A stretch of 64,000 bases of DNA from Dehalococcoidia bacterium (GTDB lineage Bacteria > Chloroflexota > Dehalococcoidia > Lucifugimonadales > UBA3495). This document shows positions 46,415 to 53,691 of this stretch, piece by piece. Made by a program: the position numbers and the translations under genes. Positions within the stretch are counted from its first letter, which is position 1, and every line of letters starts with the position of its first letter. The stretch is from assembly GCA_963664625.1 (NCBI GenBank), contig OY761541.1, forward strand, positions 3,019,606 to 3,083,605, in the 5' to 3' direction. The notes beneath the pieces were generated by a model, which was given only the letters and a program-made list of their open reading frames with translations, ran no database searches and was not told the origin of the DNA.

Positions 46415-46490
46415 TTATATAGGATCAGGGCATGTGCAAAGTAATTGTCTGAATCAGGATATTCCCAATCCTGAGCATCCTTTAATCTTG

Positions 46491-47609
46491 ATGATCCTGA
46501 TGAAGGGAGCAATCCTGACTGTCCTTTTTGTAGTGGTTGCCGGCATACTGGCCTGCGATAAGACCCCGCCTGGTGCGCCGCTCCCGCCGCTTCCTACACC
46601 CTTGTCATCATCCGACGTTGGGCGAGTAGAATTGAGCACCGACGGCCTGTTGACCGATATGTACGGAGACAATGCCGTCGGCATAACCGACGACGAAGAA
46701 CTGTTGCTGGTGAACGTCCGCACCGGTGAAGCCCGACAACTAACTGACGATGGTCACTACAAGAGGGATGCGGTATTGTCCGCCACCCACGTCGCTTGGA
46801 TTGACGGACGCCGGAATATCTTACTGCCCAGAGATACCGGCAGGGTCATGCCCGCGGACGACGTGTTCGTGATGGACCTCCGCACGGGCGAGCAACGCCG
46901 CATCACCGACACGCCGGCGAACCGGTGTAGCCTACGCATATCCGGCTCTCGCTTGGTTTGGGAGGACAATCGCAACGAACTGGAAGAAAACTCGGATAAC
47001 CACGACATCTACGCCTACGACCTGCGAAACAACCAGGAAATCCCTGTAGTGGTTGCCCCGGGCAAGCAGCGGCACCCCGCAATTCACGGCGATATCGTGG
47101 TCTGGTCCGATAATCGCAACAGCCCGGACATTGGGACCAGCGCCGCCGGTTGCCACAACCTGCCTGACCGGCGTTGCGACATCTACTCCTACAACTTAGC
47201 CACTGGCGAGGAGAAACTCCTGGTGCAGACGGGCAATAACAACGGTTCACCCTCCATACACGGTGAGTTGTTGGCTTGGCAGAAGTATCTTGAAGGAGGC
47301 CGGTCACTTGTCGTCCTGCTGGACTTGGACACCATGGAACAACGCAACATCGGCTTCGGCGGGCGTTCCGAAACCCGGCCTTTGGTATCCGGGAGTCATG
47401 TAGTCTGGCCAGTGAGACAATCCTGTGACGTAAGAGGCGTCGATGGCGATAAGTCCGCGACGGGCGCCTTTGCCTACCGGCTGGAAACCGGCGAGGTGCG
47501 CCGGTTGTCCAGCTACGTCGAGGCGACGACGCTCCTGCATGACAACGTAGCAGTGGTTACCGAGGGTTGCCAAATCGCATTTCGAAGCTACGCCGTCTTC
47601 CTCGACTGA
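46491..47609 (+). CDS. Lipoprotein with beta-propeller-type repeats
   Basis: Lipobox VVAGILAC. Repeated units have the form G..(V/L)(V/A)W.D.R....DIY.Y(D/N)L..(G/N).E. The start could be the ATG at 46491 or at 46500. Confidence 0.7.
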   Translation: MILMKGAILTVLFVVVAGILACDKTPPGAPLPPLPTPLSSSDVGRVELSTDGLLTDMYGDNAVGITDDEELLLVNVRTGEARQLTDDGHYKRDAVLSATHVAWIDGRRNILLPRDTGRVMPADDVFVMDLRTGEQRRITDTPANRCSLRISGSRLVWEDNRNELEENSDNHDIYAYDLRNNQEIPVVVAPGKQRHPAIHGDIVVWSDNRNSPDIGTSAAGCHNLPDRRCDIYSYNLATGEEKLLVQTGNNNGSPSIHGELLAWQKYLEGGRSLVVLLDLDTMEQRNIGFGGRSETRPLVSGSHVVWPVRQSCDVRGVDGDKSATGAFAYRLETGEVRRLSSYVEATTLLHDNVAVVTEGCQIAFRSYAVFLD

Positions 47610-47775: not shown

Positions 47776-47790
47776 TGATACGGTGTCTCA
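47776..47790. promoter_or_regulatory. Degenerate Fur-family box upstream of the regulator gene
   Basis: TGATACG-G-TGTCTCA has 5/7 symmetric positions and shares the TGATAC half-site with the perfect box at 48328. It overlaps a TTGACA-17-TACGGT promoter-like element. Confidence 0.25.
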
Positions 47791-47834: not shown

Positions 47835-48281
47835 ATGCTATCAATAAAAGGCCTTGTGATTTCAGACGCAAACCTGATGCCGGTGTTAGAGGAGATGGGC
47901 TACAGGGCCACTGCTCCCAGGAAAGCGATAGCCAAGCTCCTGGAGCAGAAGCATGACAGCTTTACGGTGGAGTCACTCAGTGAAGAACTGCCTTCGGTGG
48001 GCAGGGCGACGGTATACCGCACCATCAAGCTGCTTCTCGAGGTGGGGGCGGTCTGCAAGCTTGCCACGATAGACGGGTCTCAGATGTACAGCCTTTGCCG
48101 GGTTGGTCATCACCATCACCACTCAGTGTGCATACAATGCGGCGCGGTGGAAGAATTCAGGGCCGCCGCGGTCGAACGGTTGATCAGCGCACTCAGCGCC
48201 GAAATTCCTGGAGAGGTCATCGACCACCGTATCGAGTTGTACGTGGTCTGTGGCTTTTGCCCATCCGACGGGGGTAAGTAA
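47835..48281 (+). CDS. Fur-family metalloregulator (probable Zur, judged from context)
   Basis: Winged-helix ...GRATVYRTIKLL..., a HHHHH run, and the CxxC pairs CIQC and CGFC. It is adjacent to zinc-uptake-type genes. Confidence 0.85.
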   Translation: MLSIKGLVISDANLMPVLEEMGYRATAPRKAIAKLLEQKHDSFTVESLSEELPSVGRATVYRTIKLLLEVGAVCKLATIDGSQMYSLCRVGHHHHHSVCIQCGAVEEFRAAAVERLISALSAEIPGEVIDHRIELYVVCGFCPSDGGK

Positions 48282-48327: not shown

Positions 48328-48342
48328 TGATACTAAGTATCA
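48328..48342. promoter_or_regulatory. Perfect 7-1-7 palindrome, candidate Zur/Fur box
   Basis: TGATACT-A-AGTATCA lies 54-69 nt upstream of the binding-protein start. Compare the Fur-type consensus TGATAATnATTATCA. Confidence 0.6.
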
Positions 48343-48395: not shown

Positions 48396-50762
48396 ATGGA
48401 GGACTCGAGGATGCTATTGATACAAGGTCGCAATATAAATTTTGGCCGTCTGGCCCAGGCGTTTGCTGTGGGTCTTGTCGTATTAAGTGTGGTTTTCTTG
48501 GTTGCCTGCTCAGGTGGTCAGGACCCGCCGGCGACAGAAGGGCCGGAGCCCACTGCTGCCGTCGCCGTTGTGGCCGCCGATTCCCAGCCAACCCAGGAGT
48601 TGGCGCGCCAGGGAACCACATCTACCGGCGCGGGCGTTGTTGAGGCCTCACTCTCCAACCCGCCCGTCAAGGTGGTCACTTCCGCCAACTTTGTGGGTGA
48701 CTGGGCCAGAATCGTGGGTGGAGACCGGGCGGAGGTCTTTGCCATGCTGCCGCCCGGTCAAGATCCACACTCCTACTCGCCGGGAGGTCGGGATGTGGCC
48801 AAGGTCGCGGATGCGGACGTAGTGTTTACCGTTGGCCTGAACCTGGAGGACCAATGGCTGTATGACCTGTTGCGCAATGCCAGTACGGATGAGACCGGGT
48901 TAATCGCCCTTGGCGAATCCGTTGACCCCATTGAGTTTTCCGGGCCGGACCCGCATGGCCACCACGGGGATGACCATGGCGAGATGATGACAGACGACGA
49001 CCACGGCGAAGCGACGATCATGGGGCGTTTGCTGATCGGCGACGGGGAGGACGGCAAAGTTTCCCTGATAGACTTGGAAACGGGACACGTGGACCAGGAC
49101 CGTTTCGATCTGGGATCCCGGGCCGGCCGGATTTACCCCACCCGAAATGGCCGCTATGCAATCGCCGTTTCCTCTGACGCCAACACCGCCCACCTGTTTG
49201 ACGGCGGCATATTTATGGAACCCCACGGCGACCACTTCGACTTGGTGGAAACACCGACGCAGCAACTTGAAATCGACTTGGCGGGGGACCGCCCGGTGCA
49301 TCTGTATGTGGGCGAAGAGTGGGCGACCATTTTCTACGACGGCTCGGGGGATGTAGTGCTCATCAATGAGCATGAATTGGGAGAGCAGGAGGACAACTAT
49401 GTTCCTGTACGGATGAACGCAGGTCCTCAACACGGAGCGGCGGTGCCTCTGGAAGGCGATCTGTTCGCCGTGTCTATTCAGCACCCGGACTATTCCCAGA
49501 ACCCCGAAGAATACCGATCGCCCATTGGCGCGGAGATCAGGGATCTGGACGGCAACGTGCTGTACGGAGTGGAGGGTTGCGACTCGCTGCACGGAGATGC
49601 AGGCAACGGTCACATGGCTGTCTTCGGCTGCGTGGGTGGCGCATTGGCCATAGAAGCCCACGACGGTGAATATGACCATGTGTTCGTCCCCGCTCCAGAT
49701 GGCGCACCTGACGACTTCCGGCTCACAACAGTTTGGGGCTACCACGGCTTGGACCACTTCTTCGCCTTGGGATCGGAGGTGGGGCTGTACATGGTGGAGC
49801 CGGAAGAGGAAGAGATGGAACTGCTAATCCCCGCCACGGAGAATCTCCGTCCAATCCAGGCCCAGCTTGGCCATGGAGGTGAAACCCTGTTAGTGGTCAT
49901 GAGCGACGGCGAGTTGCGGATGTACGACGCTCACGACCTGGACCTGTTGGCTTCCTCGGACGGCCTTTTGACCACGCCGGTGGAAACCGGTTTCTGGGCT
50001 CGGCCCCACCTTGCCACGGCGCCGGGCGCGATTTTCGTCACTGACTCGGTGGGGGGACGGGTGCTGCAACTGGATGCCCACGACCTGACGGAAGTCGGGC
50101 ACTGGGATGTCTCCGGGTCCCCCACCAAGATCGCTTTCGTCGGAATCATGGGTGGCGAGGCCGGCCACCAGGACGAACACAGCCAGGACGGCCACAGCCA
50201 GGATGAACATGGCCATGAGGGGCACGACCACGGCCTTCTGGACCCCCACTTCTGGTTCGATCCAGTCAGGGTGAAGATCGCCGTCAACGAAATAGCCGCT
50301 CAGCTTTCGACGCTGGACCCCGATAGCGCGAGCGTCTACTACCGGAACGCCATCGATTATGGAAAGCAGCTTGACGAGTTGCACGCCTGGATCCAGGAGC
50401 AGGTTGATATGGTTCCGCCGGAGCGAAGACTGCTGGTTACATCCCATGACACCTTCGCCTACTTTGCAAAGGCTTACGGATTTGAGGTCGTCGGCTTTGT
50501 CATACCGTCTCTGGCCCCGGACTTGGAACCTTCGGCGGACCACATAGCGGGACTGATTGAGGTGGTCCGGGAGCACAATGTCCCCGCTGTGTTTGGCGAG
50601 ACTACCGTCAACGAAAGGCTGGCACGAACCGTAGCAAGGGAGACCGGGGTGGAACTGGTCCAGCTCTATACCGGCTCCATGGGAGTAGAGGGCAGTGGCG
50701 CGGACACATACCTTGGCATGGTGCGGACCAACGTGGAACGGATAGTGGATGCCTTGAAATAA
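48396..50762 (+). CDS. ZnuA/AztC-type (cluster A-I) metal-binding lipoprotein with a nested ~380-aa propeller-like insertion
   Basis: Lipobox FLVACSG. The N-lobe contains ...LPPGQDPHSYSP.... His/Asp-rich linkers lie at aa 185-205 and 588-613. The C-lobe contains DPHFWFDP...TSHDTFAYFAKAYGF...VFGETTVN. The insertion is aa ~206-588 (nt 49011-50159). The ATG at 48411, after GGAGG, is an alternative start. Confidence 0.85.
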   Translation: MEDSRMLLIQGRNINFGRLAQAFAVGLVVLSVVFLVACSGGQDPPATEGPEPTAAVAVVAADSQPTQELARQGTTSTGAGVVEASLSNPPVKVVTSANFVGDWARIVGGDRAEVFAMLPPGQDPHSYSPGGRDVAKVADADVVFTVGLNLEDQWLYDLLRNASTDETGLIALGESVDPIEFSGPDPHGHHGDDHGEMMTDDDHGEATIMGRLLIGDGEDGKVSLIDLETGHVDQDRFDLGSRAGRIYPTRNGRYAIAVSSDANTAHLFDGGIFMEPHGDHFDLVETPTQQLEIDLAGDRPVHLYVGEEWATIFYDGSGDVVLINEHELGEQEDNYVPVRMNAGPQHGAAVPLEGDLFAVSIQHPDYSQNPEEYRSPIGAEIRDLDGNVLYGVEGCDSLHGDAGNGHMAVFGCVGGALAIEAHDGEYDHVFVPAPDGAPDDFRLTTVWGYHGLDHFFALGSEVGLYMVEPEEEEMELLIPATENLRPIQAQLGHGGETLLVVMSDGELRMYDAHDLDLLASSDGLLTTPVETGFWARPHLATAPGAIFVTDSVGGRVLQLDAHDLTEVGHWDVSGSPTKIAFVGIMGGEAGHQDEHSQDGHSQDEHGHEGHDHGLLDPHFWFDPVRVKIAVNEIAAQLSTLDPDSASVYYRNAIDYGKQLDELHAWIQEQVDMVPPERRLLVTSHDTFAYFAKAYGFEVVGFVIPSLAPDLEPSADHIAGLIEVVREHNVPAVFGETTVNERLARTVARETGVELVQLYTGSMGVEGSGADTYLGMVRTNVERIVDALK

Positions 50763-50935
50763 ACCCAGACCCTCAGCAAGGTGGACCGGCGAAGGGGGGC
50801 GTTGGCCTACGTCCCCCTAATGCGACAGCGGCGGCAGTGCATATTTCCTAGTTGATACATCGTGGCAATGGCGACATCGCTGGCTGCAATCTTCAATCGA
50901 TACATCATCTCAATAAAATGTAAAGAGGATTCTAT

Positions 50936-51146
50936 ATGAACACGCCGCGCAAAGTACCTGCCACCATCCTCACCGGCTTCCTCGGCTCTGGCAAGACGAC
51001 CCTACCCAGCCGGATCTTGACTGAGCAGCGTGGAACTGGGCGGGTACATGGCCCTGAGCAAGGTTACATTCGATGCAAGCGCAGGTACCCTGTTGGGCGT
51101 CGTCGGACCCAACGGAGCCGGTAAGAGCACCCTGTTCTATACCTAA
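50936..51146 (+). pseudogene. Chimeric remnant: a duplicate of the cobW 5' end joined out of frame to a ZnuC-like ABC ATPase fragment
   Basis: 50907-51029 is about 90% identical to 51146-51269 (RBS plus the first 31 codons of the COG0523 gene). 51030-51146 encodes [38 protein letters not shown] (Walker A) in another frame. Confidence 0.6.
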
Positions 51147-51175
51147 TCTCAATCAAACCTGAAGGAGGATTCTAT

Positions 51176-52603
51176 ATGAACACGCAGCACAAAGTACCTG
51201 TCACCATCCTCACCGGCTTCCTCGGCTCTGGCAAGACGACCCTGCTCAACCGGATCTTGACTGAGGAGCACGGCAAGCGTATTGCCGTGATCGAGAACGA
51301 GTATGGGGAGGTCGGCATCGATCAGGCGCTCGTCATCAACGCTGACGAGGAGGTCTTCGAGATGTCGAACGGTTGCATCTGCTGCACGGTGCGCGGAGAT
51401 CTGATTCGGGTGCTCAACAATCTCAATAAGCGCCGCGACAAGTTCGACTATGTGTTGGTGGAAACCACAGGGCTCGCCGATCCCGGTCCGGTCGCGCAGA
51501 CATTCTTCATGGATGACGAGCTTCGCGCTGAATACGCGCTTGACGGGATCGTCACGCTCGTTGATGCAGCCCACATTGATCAGCAGCTCGGCCGAAGCGA
51601 CGAAAGCACGGAGCAAATCGCGTTCGCAGACGTCCTCTTGCTCAACAAGACGGACCTCGTCAACGACGAGACCCTTGATAATCTGGAGTCTCGGCTCCGG
51701 GGCATGAACCGAATGGCCCGAGTCCTGCGCAGCGAGATGGCGAACGTACCGATAGACACCGTGCTCGACTTGGCCGCCTTCGACCTGGACCAGGTGCTCG
51801 AGCGTCGTCCCACCTTCCTCGAGCCGGAGTATCCCTTCGAATGGACGGGCGTCTATTCCCTCGGTGCCGGCCGCTACGAACTCAGCCTCGCCGAAGGGCC
51901 TGACCCGTCAATGTCCCTGGTCGTCGTACCCGATCAGGCCACGGATGACGCTGCCCTCCGGGAGGGCGCGGAGTGGTGTGTGCGGCAGTACGCCGAACCC
52001 GCGGAGACCATTCAACCGGGGGAAGAGATTCCGGTCGGAAAGCATGTGGACCTCCGGCTCGATTCCCCAGGGCGCAAGTCGTTCTTCTTTGAGGTCGCTG
52101 CGCCGGGTCGGTTTGGCCTCTTCACCCAGCACCTCCCGGAGGAGTTCGATCTCCAACTGAGGAATGCGGATGGAGAGGCTTTCAAACTGGGGGGCAACTT
52201 TTGCTCCGAGCCTGCCTGCATAGAGGAAGAGACAGACACGAAACGCATCAAGGGAGCGGCGGTTCCCGCCGAAGCCGAGCGGACCTGGGTCGCCCAGCAC
52301 GAGCACGACGACGAGGTGGGGTCAATCTCCATCGAGATAGACGGCGACGCCGACCCCGAAAAGCTCAACGCCTGGCTTGGCCAACTGCTCCGGGAACGCG
52401 GGGTGGACATCTTCCGAATGAAGGGCTTCATCAGCGTCGCGGGGGAGTCGCGTCGCTTCGTCTTCCAGGGGGTTCACATGCTCTTTGACGGCCAGCCGGA
52501 CCGCGAATGGGGGGACGCCCCCCGCCGCAATCAACTCGTCTTCATCGGCCGCAACCTCGATGGACAGAGTATGCGTGAGGGGTTCGAAGCATGTCTGATT
52601 TAA
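51176..52603 (+). CDS. COG0523-family (CobW/ZigA-like) metallochaperone GTPase with an internal ~155-aa insertion
   Basis: [12 protein letters not shown] (P-loop), GCICC (CxCC metal motif), ETTGLADP, NKTDL, and the C-terminal CobW_C pattern HEHDDEVGSISIE...IFRMKGF. aa ~219-374 have no counterpart in the canonical architecture. Confidence 0.9.
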   Translation: MNTQHKVPVTILTGFLGSGKTTLLNRILTEEHGKRIAVIENEYGEVGIDQALVINADEEVFEMSNGCICCTVRGDLIRVLNNLNKRRDKFDYVLVETTGLADPGPVAQTFFMDDELRAEYALDGIVTLVDAAHIDQQLGRSDESTEQIAFADVLLLNKTDLVNDETLDNLESRLRGMNRMARVLRSEMANVPIDTVLDLAAFDLDQVLERRPTFLEPEYPFEWTGVYSLGAGRYELSLAEGPDPSMSLVVVPDQATDDAALREGAEWCVRQYAEPAETIQPGEEIPVGKHVDLRLDSPGRKSFFFEVAAPGRFGLFTQHLPEEFDLQLRNADGEAFKLGGNFCSEPACIEEETDTKRIKGAAVPAEAERTWVAQHEHDDEVGSISIEIDGDADPEKLNAWLGQLLRERGVDIFRMKGFISVAGESRRFVFQGVHMLFDGQPDREWGDAPRRNQLVFIGRNLDGQSMREGFEACLI

Positions 52604-53691
52604 ATGCCGACGGCCCGAAGAGTGTTCTTACCCAAGGCTGGTTTGCGTCGGTCGGCGACTACGCCATCGCTGGGGGATGGATCCTGCGTGGCGAGGCGCT
52701 GGTGGCCGGCGATGCCGAGGGCAGCGTCTACGGATTCGACGGCGAGTCCGGCGCGACCGCCTGGGAGCGGCCCGGGGTTCATGAGGGTGGAGTGCTCGCG
52801 GTGGCAATCCACCCCAGCGGGGCCGCGTTCGCCACGGCCGGCAAGGACGGCCGGGTCTTAATCTGGAACGCCGCCGAAGGTCAGGTAAGCCGGGCTATAG
52901 ACGTCGGAAGCGGTTGGGTGGAAAACTTAGCGTGGTCTCCGGACGGCCAACGGTTGGCGGCCTCCTGCTCCCGGCAGGTTTACATGTATGACGCGGACGG
53001 CGCGGAGGTTTGGCGCTCTGATGATCATCCCAGCACCGTCAGCGCCATCGCCTGGTCGAGCGCAAGGGAACTGGCGACGGCCTGTTATGGTCGGGCGAGC
53101 TTCTTTAACGCAGCCACCGGCAATCTCCGCCAGAAGCTGGAGTGGCAGGGATCCCTGGTGTCGATGGTGCTGAGCCCGGGCGGGGGCATCGTGGCCTGCG
53201 GCAGCCAGGACAACTCGGTGCATTTCTGGCGCCGCTCCACGGGGCAGGATTCCGAGATGTTCGGATATCCTGGCAAGCCCTCGGCTCTGGCTTTCGATGA
53301 CACCGGCACCCTTTTGGCCACCAGCGGCGGAGAGGCGGTGACGGTCTGGAGCTTCCGGAAAAAGGGCCCCGAAGGTACGCAGCCCGGCGTCCTGGAGTTT
53401 CATACTGAATCTGTAACGACCCTTGCCTTCGCTCCCGGCGCGATGCGCTTGGCATCGGGGGGGCGAGATGGCGCCGTGGTTGTGTGGTCGCTGCGGAGAA
53501 GTGGAAAAGGCGACCCGATAGGGGCCGAGGATGTAGGAGCCGCAGTGTCCAAATTATACTGGCAACCTGACGGGGGCGGCCTTGCCGCCCTCGACGCGCG
53601 GGGTGGCGTGATGGTTTGGCGGATAGACCCGACAAAGGGCCGGGGTAGCCGCGCCCGCGCAGCGCGGCGCCCCGGTTCGGGCGGCGGCTGA
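52591..53691 (+). CDS. WD40-repeat beta-propeller protein (cytoplasmic)
   Basis: Seven or so units of the form H...V..(L/I)A(F/W)SPDG..LA(S/T).G.D..V..W. No signal peptide. The ATG overlaps the COG0523 stop by 13 nt. Confidence 0.85.
   Translation: MSDLNADGPKSVLTQGWFASVGDYAIAGGWILRGEALVAGDAEGSVYGFDGESGATAWERPGVHEGGVLAVAIHPSGAAFATAGKDGRVLIWNAAEGQVSRAIDVGSGWVENLAWSPDGQRLAASCSRQVYMYDADGAEVWRSDDHPSTVSAIAWSSARELATACYGRASFFNAATGNLRQKLEWQGSLVSMVLSPGGGIVACGSQDNSVHFWRRSTGQDSEMFGYPGKPSALAFDDTGTLLATSGGEAVTVWSFRKKGPEGTQPGVLEFHTESVTTLAFAPGAMRLASGGRDGAVVVWSLRRSGKGDPIGAEDVGAAVSKLYWQPDGGGLAALDARGGVMVWRIDPTKGRGSRARAARRPGSGGG

Follow-up and report, generated by a model that had tools for sequence, protein, structure and literature searches.

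Can the substrate-binding protein of a zinc ATP-binding cassette (ABC) importer carry, as a domain inside one of its own loops, the metallochaperone that loads it? This question is raised by a single open reading frame (ORF) at positions 48396-50762 of a 64,000-nucleotide stretch of contig OY761541.1 from a Dehalococcoidia bacterium of the phylum Chloroflexota; the whole of this stretch is termed the window below. An initial annotation, made from the sequence letters alone, had read the ORF as a ZnuA/AztC-type binding protein split by a propeller-like insert that resembles the zinc metallochaperone AztD. Our analysis leads us to regard it as likely that the product is a membrane-anchored, zinc-binding lipoprotein of a cluster A-I ABC importer, with a complete AztD metallochaperone lodged in its His-rich loop and with zinc handed over within a single polypeptide.

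A binding protein interrupted at its His-rich loop

The Pfam ZnuA model (PF01297) passes its gathering threshold by a wide margin (268 bits against a cutoff of 29) and does so in two collinear stretches around an AztD match, in agreement with the split ZnuA-type protein of the initial annotation; the best stretch covers amino acids (aa) 600-786, which correspond to profile positions 83-263. Likewise, a phmmer search of the PDB sequences aligns aa 86-188 with residues 28-134 of PsaA and aa 610-787 with residues 131-307. The binding protein is cut at a single point, between PsaA residues ~130 and ~134 and right before the second ligand His, and the insertion therefore lies at the site of the flexible loop of ZnuA and AztC, where it had first been placed. 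The parts of the ORF, in which the two His/Asp-rich linkers quoted earlier recur with the insert between them, are as follows:

48396-50762, + strand: whole ORF, 788 aa, read as a zinc substrate-binding lipoprotein of the ZnuA/AztC type with a nested AztD domain
48411-48509, + strand: predicted lipoprotein signal peptide, ending at the lipobox L-V-A-C38; helix at aa 4-37 in the AlphaFold2 model
48510-48650, + strand: Pro/Thr/Ala-rich disordered tether, aa 39-85; predicted local distance difference test score (pLDDT) <50, mean identity of 26% among homologues
48651-48941, + strand: N-lobe, aa 86-182, with the putative first zinc ligand H125 in a GQDPHSY motif; aligns with PsaA 28-134
48942-49010, + strand: linker 1, aa 183-205, GPDPHGHHGDDHGEMMTDDDHGE; His/Asp/Glu-rich, disordered, pLDDT <50
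49011-50153, + strand: AztD-type beta-propeller, aa 206-586 (~380 aa), assigned from NCBIfam AztD, PDB and Foldseek matches and from ligand conservation
50154-50240, + strand: linker 2, aa 587-615, GEAGHQDEHSQDGHSQDEHGHEGHDHGLL; His-rich, disordered, pLDDT <50
50241-50759, + strand: C-lobe, aa 616-788, with the putative ligands H618 (DPHFW) and H684 (TSHDTF); aligns with PsaA 131-307

Residue numbers throughout are those of the 788-aa ORF from 48396, although the true start is probably the second ATG at 48411, because a GGAGGA sequence (48398-48403) stands 8 nt ahead of it and the gene as called in the database encodes 783 aa. The lipobox residues A37 and C38 are near-invariant among 101 homologues, and the Cys is found in 72 of the 82 proteins of a second alignment.

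An AlphaFold2 model, built on an alignment of 101 nested homologues, has a mean pLDDT of 80. It presents, in order, a signal helix (aa 4-37), the tether (38-85), the N-lobe (91-175), a linker (180-205), an all-beta domain (210-583), a second linker (587-615) and the C-lobe (616-787), and hence places a predicted propeller on the loop between the lobes, as had been anticipated. The beta-alpha repeats of the lobes span aa 91-175 (N-lobe pLDDT 70-97) and aa 679-757, with long helices at 623-640 and 642-670, such that both the two lobes and the long helix of a cluster A-I protein are seen in the model. In Foldseek searches the C-lobe superposes on YfeA, TroA, AztC and PsaA.

The insert as an AztD propeller

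Several lines of evidence identify the inserted domain. The NCBIfam AztD model (NF038015) matches aa 215-582 over profile positions 2-354 of 356 (E 1.3e-32), and no Pfam model matches this propeller. When the insert alone was compared with the PDB sequences, only the AztD entries 6CK1 (E 2.7e-30) and 6CMK (E 3.4e-29) were recovered. The all-beta domain of the model comprises ~34 strands, mostly with pLDDT >90, and the nine best Foldseek matches to the PDB are all AztD chains (target-normalised TM 0.84-0.86; E 1e-26 to 1e-28), with root-mean-square deviations of ~3 Å over 375-388 columns in superpositions on 6CMK, 6N01 and 6CK1. Next in rank come cluster A-I binding proteins, through the C-lobe, and generic YVTN-type propellers at E ~1e-12 and TM ~0.5. 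The earlier suggestion of an AztD-like metallochaperone as an inserted domain thus fits both the profile and the structural matches.

The characterised AztD of Paracoccus denitrificans (PdAztD) has two zinc sites, site 1 formed by His124, His167 and His218, and site 2 by His99, His102, Asp104 and the C-terminal His408 together with a conserved Gly100, and a disulfide between Cys214 and Cys231 (PMC6689063). In an alignment of 82 nested proteins from 81 loci with PdAztD, site 1 corresponds to H302, H346 and H399, which are kept in 82, 79 and 77 of the 82 proteins, respectively. Site 2 corresponds to H277, H280 and D282 (PdAztD H99, H102 and D104), each kept in 81 of 82, with G278 (PdAztD G100) present in 69 of 82. 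The cysteines C395 and C412 (PdAztD C214 and C231) are invariant (82/82). Seven internal zinc ligands and the disulfide cysteines thereby match PdAztD positions one to one, with the His, Asp and Cys residues kept in 77-82 of the 82 proteins. The His clusters quoted in the initial annotation are part of this pattern: EPHGDHFD is AztD site 2, and SLHGD forms part of site 1. The mean identity of the propeller (61%) equals or approaches that of the lobes (61% and 68%), and the propeller is therefore under comparable constraint. Going by its predicted fold and ligands, the insert is a full AztD propeller and a member of the AztD superfamily, set apart from the free-standing secreted AztD proteins by its nesting within a binding protein.

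One could alternatively regard the propeller as a generic protein-protein or cell-surface scaffold with no part in metal transfer: most beta-propellers are interaction scaffolds, the insert is only 24-27% identical to characterised AztD, and the residues of site 2 are altered in a few distant nested relatives (e.g. P0223 and P0185). Against this, the seven zinc ligands and the disulfide pair are retained across the 82 homologues at exactly the PdAztD positions, and AztD structures outrank all other propellers by twelve orders of magnitude in E-value. We hence deem a mere scaffold highly improbable.

The acceptor site, the linkers and the identity of the metal

Alignment of the lobes with PsaA pairs H125 with H67, H618 with H139, H684 with E205 and G760 with D/N280; the entry of the D280N mutant (4UTO) confirms the PsaA numbering at the last of these. 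H125 is kept in 80 of the 82 nested homologues, and H618 and H684 in all 82. At position 760, the place of the fourth (Asp) ligand, 76 of them have Gly and 6 have Asp. The Gly at this position points to an acceptor site of the three-His, ZnuA-like zinc type and not of the His3-Asp type of AztC, TroA and PsaA. In PdAztC the Asp of the His3-Asp zinc site is Asp279, the equivalent of PsaA D280. The site of ZnuA itself consists of three His with no Asp ligand, the same pattern as predicted here. In addition, the His at the third ligand position (H684) argues for zinc rather than manganese or iron. Among binding-protein models, NCBIfam AztC (NF040870) scores best, again in two stretches (E 1.5e-74).

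At the position of the D-loop of AztC, the nested protein has two His-rich linkers around the propeller. Across homologues linker 1 has a median length of 23 aa with 5 His and 8 Asp plus Glu, and linker 2 a median of 7 His and 11 Asp plus Glu. H610 and H612 of linker 2, which precede the ligand H618, are invariant (82/82). H591, located five residues past the last propeller strand and kept in 70 of 81 proteins, is probably the equivalent of the C-terminal site-2 His of AztD; it matches the C-terminal His of P0122, a free-standing relative that ends in ...KGH.

A system for manganese, iron, cobalt or nickel instead of zinc must also be considered. The best PDB sequence matches of the lobes are the Mn/Fe proteins PsaA, MtsA and YfeA, the NCBIfam model of MntC from Deinococcus scores almost as high as AztC, the best subfamily matches of the neighboring regulator (see below) are to Fur and not Zur, all of them below cutoff, and COG0523 proteins, one of which is encoded downstream, are not all related to zinc. 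The residues at the sites themselves speak otherwise: the third ligand is His in place of the Glu of Mn/Fe proteins (PsaA E205), and the missing fourth-ligand Asp is the ZnuA pattern. Both AztD zinc sites are conserved in the insert, linkers rich in His are a usual feature of cluster A-I proteins of the zinc type, and related proteins of Chloroflexota hold ZinT, another zinc module, in the same loop. With this balance we consider another metal to be quite unlikely.

Recurrence and distribution of the nested architecture

The protein database contains more than 120 full-length proteins of the same length at 59-90% identity. A scan of genomes, limited to one per species, returned 545 related stretches, and in the best 80 of these the nested order is contiguous in every case (80/80), as predicted in the initial annotation for homologues. 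Carriers among the best 80 are metagenome-assembled genomes (MAGs) of Dehalococcoidia/SAR202, Caldilineaceae, Aggregatilineales and Acidimicrobiia (Candidatus Spongiisociaceae), and include complete chromosomes. Many of the carrier MAGs are presumably of sponge origin, going by their bin names. In the Actinomycetota, nested proteins of ~45% identity are seen in two MAGs (L058 and L063; Candidatus Spongiisociaceae, an Acidimicrobiia bin), which suggests horizontal transfer within a sponge community, the sponge source being taken from bin names.

A search with the insert of 1.84 billion cluster representatives found 584 AztD-family clusters, mostly free-standing proteins ~400-470 aa long. The order N-lobe, propeller, C-lobe is seen in at least 13 full-length representatives, with propeller identity to the window protein falling to 26-35%. 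Profile searches place the distant nested clusters in Chloroflexota, namely Caldilinea, Aggregatilineales (including SYSU G02658) and Anaerolineae, and these distant proteins retain the Asp ligand, in the motif LYTDALG.

This recurrence bears on a further explanation, in which aztC and aztD are separate genes that a chimeric assembly or a frame error has fused into one ORF. A misjoin could in principle generate a nested order, and we found nothing specific in favor of one. On the other side, the same N-lobe/propeller/C-lobe order recurs in the 80 best species-level loci, among them complete, long chromosomes from different projects, in over 100 database proteins at 59-90% identity and in the distant clusters. 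Moreover, a misjoin could not halve one gene around another and remain in frame at both ends, and the base composition runs without a break over both joins of the insert (GC 0.59-0.63). Misassembly was accordingly rejected on the strength of recurrence in at least 80 species-level genomes, complete chromosomes included, and the chance of a chimera or frame-error fusion is negligible.

In databases the nested proteins go under the names 'metal/zinc ABC transporter substrate-binding protein', 'ZnuA' and 'hypothetical'. No description of a nested AztD/binding-protein fusion was found in the searchable literature, which omits many subscription papers. The paper on the AztD structures uses 'fused' and 'inserted' with respect to ZinT-AdcA and His-rich tracts only (PMC6689063). 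The initial remark that no such architecture was known to have been described agrees with this literature and with the generic database names. The nested architecture is nonetheless not rare: it is widespread in Chloroflexota and occurs in many clusters defined at 50% identity.

Genome neighborhood and loss of the transporter

To place the gene in context, ORFs from 81 related loci plus the window were clustered; the counts below are among the related loci. An exact look-up of the window protein gave no record, and a 78%-identical relative served for comparison of the surrounding genes. The neighbors in the window are as follows:

47835-48281, + strand: candidate Zur, a metal-responsive regulator of the Fur family, 148 aa, that contains a run of HHHHH and CxxC...CxxC motifs; Pfam FUR PF01475, E 1.5e-24
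50922-51029, + strand: duplicate of the ribosome-binding site and first ~30 codons of cobW; 108-nt direct repeat D1, 93% identical to 51162-51269
51027-51137, + strand: znuC remnant, from the N-terminus through Walker A and then a stop; 62% identity over 37 aa (tblastn) to the ATPase of related loci
51176-52603, + strand: metallochaperone GTPase of the COG0523 family (CobW/ZigA-like), 475 aa; Pfam cobW E 1.8e-61, CobW_C E 3.8e-26
52591-53691, + strand: WD40 beta-propeller protein, 366 aa, predicted cytoplasmic; Pfam WD40 and related propeller families

A Fur-family gene lies upstream in 55 of the 81 loci, an ABC ATPase gene (PF00005) directly downstream in 59 and, in 48 of these, also an ABC-3 permease gene (PF00950). 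As a rule, then, members of this family serve a full importer operon as its binding component. In a subclade of ~19 loci that includes the window, genes for the COG0523 GTPase and the WD40 protein come after the binding-protein gene instead. The earlier remark that no intact permease or ATPase gene is nearby was correct: what remains of the ATPase is a 37-aa znuC remnant, and the two ABC ATPases of the window at 406-2192 are unrelated. Where the remnant lies in the window, the 78%-identical relative retains an ABC_tran fragment of 54 aa. The znuC fragment is bracketed by the direct repeat 50922-51029/51162-51269, a recombination scar before cobW, and a 62-aa ORF in the duplicated cobW start matches the N-terminus of the Pfam cobW model. 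Both znuC and cobW encode P-loop NTPases, and the scar junction may have formed at the sequence coding for the P-loop. The window subclade has thus lost znuC-znuB and kept a znuC scar.

Such an orphan could function without a transporter, as a surface store, buffer or sensor of zinc, to which the three-His site, the two propeller sites and the linkers would all contribute. Apart from the loss of znuC-znuB, of which only the 37-aa scar is left, this possibility draws on the stability of the permease-less layout (Fur, binding protein, CobW, WD40) over ~19 related loci, and on the knockout work, as far as it is quoted in PMC6689063, where AztD is suggested to aid zinc accumulation in the periplasm without being essential. 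The three His and both lobes are nonetheless highly conserved in the orphan subclade (61-68% mean identity in the family, 77-90% among the closest relatives), and genomes bearing an orphan also hold a nested copy with an intact ATPase and permease. At least five genomes combine an orphan copy of the window type with a nested copy next to znuC-znuB (L001/L029, L002/L034, L004/L035, L024/L039 and L005/L048). In ABC systems it is common for orphan binding proteins to share a transporter, which further counts against a pure store or sensor. We therefore think this alternative unlikely, though less so than those concerning the metal or a scaffold, and favor the importer lipoprotein: by analogy with these genomes, the orphan copy presumably relies on the transporter that belongs to a second nested paralogue, encoded at another place in the genome.

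The WD40 gene overlaps the stop of cobW by 13 nt, and the pair co-occurs in 19 loci; the two genes are likely co-translated. We found no report that ties a COG0523 protein functionally to a WD40 partner. The matches of the GTPase to the NCBIfam ZigA and YjiA models are below cutoff, and between its cobW and CobW_C domains lies a stretch of ~170 aa. Positions 46434-47609, immediately upstream of the Fur-family gene, encode a 391-aa protein of beta-propeller repeats with an N-terminal hydrophobic segment (TIGR04275, beta_prop_Msarc, E 1.3e-24); at its place the 78%-identical relative has a DUF4926 gene.

Predicted regulation by a Fur-family protein

Two candidate operators flank the Fur-family gene:

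48328-48342, no strand assigned: candidate Zur box in the binding-protein gene promoter, a perfect 7-1-7 palindrome TGATACT-A-AGTATCA between the Fur-family and binding-protein genes
47776-47790, no strand assigned: candidate Fur/Zur operator TGATACGGTGTCTCA, ~45 nt upstream of the Fur-family gene, with one mismatch to TGATAC-N3-GTATCA

The first is the only perfect match to the palindrome in the 64-kb window. A screen of related loci for the strict 7-1-7 palindrome found it in 18 of 81, and the enrichment became clear once the motif was relaxed to 6-3-6: across 80 related loci, TGATAC-N3-GTATCA with at most one mismatch occurs 31 times between -250 and +150 of the gene start, against 1.3 matches expected from a uniform spread. 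A second cluster of the motif lies 570-680 nt upstream of the binding-protein gene in the related loci, that is, upstream of fur. Sites upstream of cobW (50852 and 50897) were considered as operators and rejected for their poor match to the motif. The motif fits a Fur-family operator with autoregulation, and the genes around it would make zinc the sensed metal. The adjacent Fur-family (Zur-like) protein probably represses the gene through the TGATAC-N3-GTATCA box, and the binding protein would be co-regulated with the cytoplasmic COG0523 zinc-chaperone GTPase.

A model for zinc hand-off within one polypeptide

In the Paracoccus system zinc reaches AztC from site 2 of AztD alone, and this site is borne on an extension that the N- and C-terminal strands form together with a hairpin of blade 2 (PMC6689063, PMC7463823). 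Transfer requires the flexible loop of AztC and its His residues; the AztD-AztC complex forms slowly, in a rate-limiting step, and the complex is transient, its geometry being taken from a docking model (PMC6689063, PMC7463823). The gene neighborhood reported for AztD includes the Fur family and COG0523 (PMC6689063), and genes of both families flank the nested ORF.

In the nested protein, linkers of ~23 and ~29 residues tether the termini of the propeller, and hence site 2, to the loop stumps at the cleft rim. On this basis we propose that the propeller and the linkers, of which the latter may act as low-affinity antennae through their His, Asp and Glu residues, scavenge zinc, which would be held beside the three-His site and passed on within one polypeptide, such that intramolecular transfer would replace the slow bimolecular encounter of AztD and AztC. 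H610, H612 or a water molecule could complete the three-His site, and the loaded protein would then dock on the ABC-3 permease/ATPase. The architecture and the conservation of the ligands are shown; which way and how fast zinc moves, what site 1 does and how the protein docks on a permease are inferred.

Several observations weigh against this reading. The scores of the two most relevant curated models are below cutoff, namely 113 bits against 400 for AztD (NF038015) and 251 against 350 for AztC (NF040870), and the fourth ligand Asp of AztC is Gly here, which makes the acceptor site unlike that of the studied system. The initial assignment to an AztC/ZnuA-type binding protein is accordingly upheld for the ZnuA fold and the three His, and fails for AztC in the strict sense. 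No ABC-3 permease gene occurs in the 64-kb window, and delivery to a transporter would rest, by analogy, on paralogues in related genomes. The regulator could not be assigned to Zur as against other Fur subfamilies, all its NCBIfam subfamily matches being below cutoff. With a predicted template modelling score (pTM) of 0.54 and disordered linkers, the AlphaFold2 model leaves the placement of the propeller relative to the cleft unpredicted. Finally, the published docking threads an intact AztC loop through the pore of AztD, an arrangement that is impossible in unchanged form when the propeller itself interrupts the loop.

Relationship to known zinc-uptake systems

The closest counterpart is AztABCD of P. 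denitrificans (PDB 5W56/5W57, 6CK1 and 6CMK), which shares with the nested protein the same two folds, AztD sites 1 and 2, the disulfide pair and a neighborhood of Fur-family, COG0523 and ABC components; AztC's flexible loop, needed for transfer, is the very point at which the propeller is inserted. The two systems also differ. AztC and AztD are two separate proteins, whereas here they form one polypeptide, in which transfer would be intramolecular. The propeller shares only ~25% identity with AztD, neither NCBIfam score reaches its cutoff, and the acceptor has an Asp ligand in AztC where the nested protein has G760. AztABCD further involves a periplasmic protein of Proteobacteria, whereas the nested protein is a predicted lipoprotein of Chloroflexota with no permease genes at its locus.

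AdcA of streptococci (PDB 7JJ9) is likewise a cluster A-I zinc lipoprotein covalently joined to a zinc-capturing module that feeds the primary site (PMC6689063). In AdcA, however, the accessory module is the lipocalin-like ZinT at the C-terminus, in contrast to an AztD propeller nested in the loop; the window protein has no Pfam match to ZinT (PF09223). ZnuA of Escherichia coli, Salmonella and Synechocystis has a His-rich acidic sequence at the same loop position and is under a Fur-family repressor, but its loop is a few tens of residues long and holds no folded domain. The NCBIfam ZnuA model gives the nested protein 89 bits against a cutoff of 268. By its profile matches the protein is a member of Pfam ZnuA, but the curated criteria for an equivalog exclude it from both AztC and AztD.

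Other modules in the same loop and other AztD fusions

In other cluster A-I proteins of Chloroflexota the same loop contains ZinT by itself, ZinT together with AztD, AztD by itself or a tandem of two AztD propellers. These variants form a second clade (Anaerolineae: Caldilinea and Aggregatilineales), in which the Asp ligand is kept; no published description of them was found. In nine proteins of ~890-910 aa (P0185, P0283, P0285, P0291, P0299, P0303, P0304, P0307 and P0348) the order is N-lobe, ZinT (PF09223), AztD, C-lobe. Relatives of ~515-555 aa have ZinT alone nested in the loop, as against the C-terminal ZinT of AdcA. P0373, P0382, P0385 and P0390 (~720-740 aa) have a loop of ~430 aa, with ZinT and a part that the propeller query did not match. 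P0126/P0271 (1216 aa) bears two near-identical AztD propellers in tandem in the loop, with two cluster members on contigs of up to 2.26 Mb; the tandem could reflect a true duplication of recent date, or else a repeat artefact of the assembly.

AztD is also found in proteins that lack a binding protein. P0154 (2432 aa) contains at least four tandem AztD propellers, and P0121 has three N-terminal repeats of ~190 aa followed by an AztD domain that is 67% identical to the insert of the window. P0168 and P0218 are ZinT-AztD fusions, and in P0204 and P0239 AztD is accompanied by FG-GAP repeats or by a Por secretion tail. The free-standing AztD P0122 (417 aa), 61% identical to the insert, bears a signal peptide of its own. 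A propeller tree, which carries no support values, places it within the nested clade; it may stem from a later fission of a nested protein or represent the lineage that donated the insert.

In a neighbor-joining tree of the lobes (60 replicates), whose deep nodes are weak, the loop-module variants are interspersed with short-loop proteins, and a ZinT+AztD protein falls inside a ZinT-only clade at 100%. Both this tree and that of the propellers place the nested forms in at least two groups, again with weak deep nodes. This pattern suggests that the loop modules were gained or lost repeatedly. On balance, and by a narrow preference, we see the loop of Chloroflexota cluster A-I proteins as an insertion hot spot that captured AztD, ZinT, ZinT plus AztD and tandem AztD, perhaps repeatedly, and that gave rise to an undescribed class of self-loading binding proteins with intrachain hand-off.

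Implications

Extracytoplasmic transfer of metal from protein to protein is poorly understood. The tying of the transfer site of the donor to the mouth of the acceptor cleft by two short linkers is evolutionary evidence, of an independent kind, for the cooperation of these surfaces, and the nested protein is tractable for crystallography, cryo-electron microscopy, small-angle X-ray scattering or nuclear magnetic resonance studies of the transfer state. If the proposal is true, the self-loading class would be a stable natural complex in which the hand-off can be viewed structurally. At the level of annotation, hundreds of Chloroflexota entries named 'metal ABC transporter substrate-binding protein' hide a second domain, which the NCBIfam AztD cutoff misses. 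The concentration of the family in marine SAR202/Dehalococcoidia and in MAGs that we presume, from their bin names, to derive from sponges hints that zinc scavenging is under selection in these organisms.

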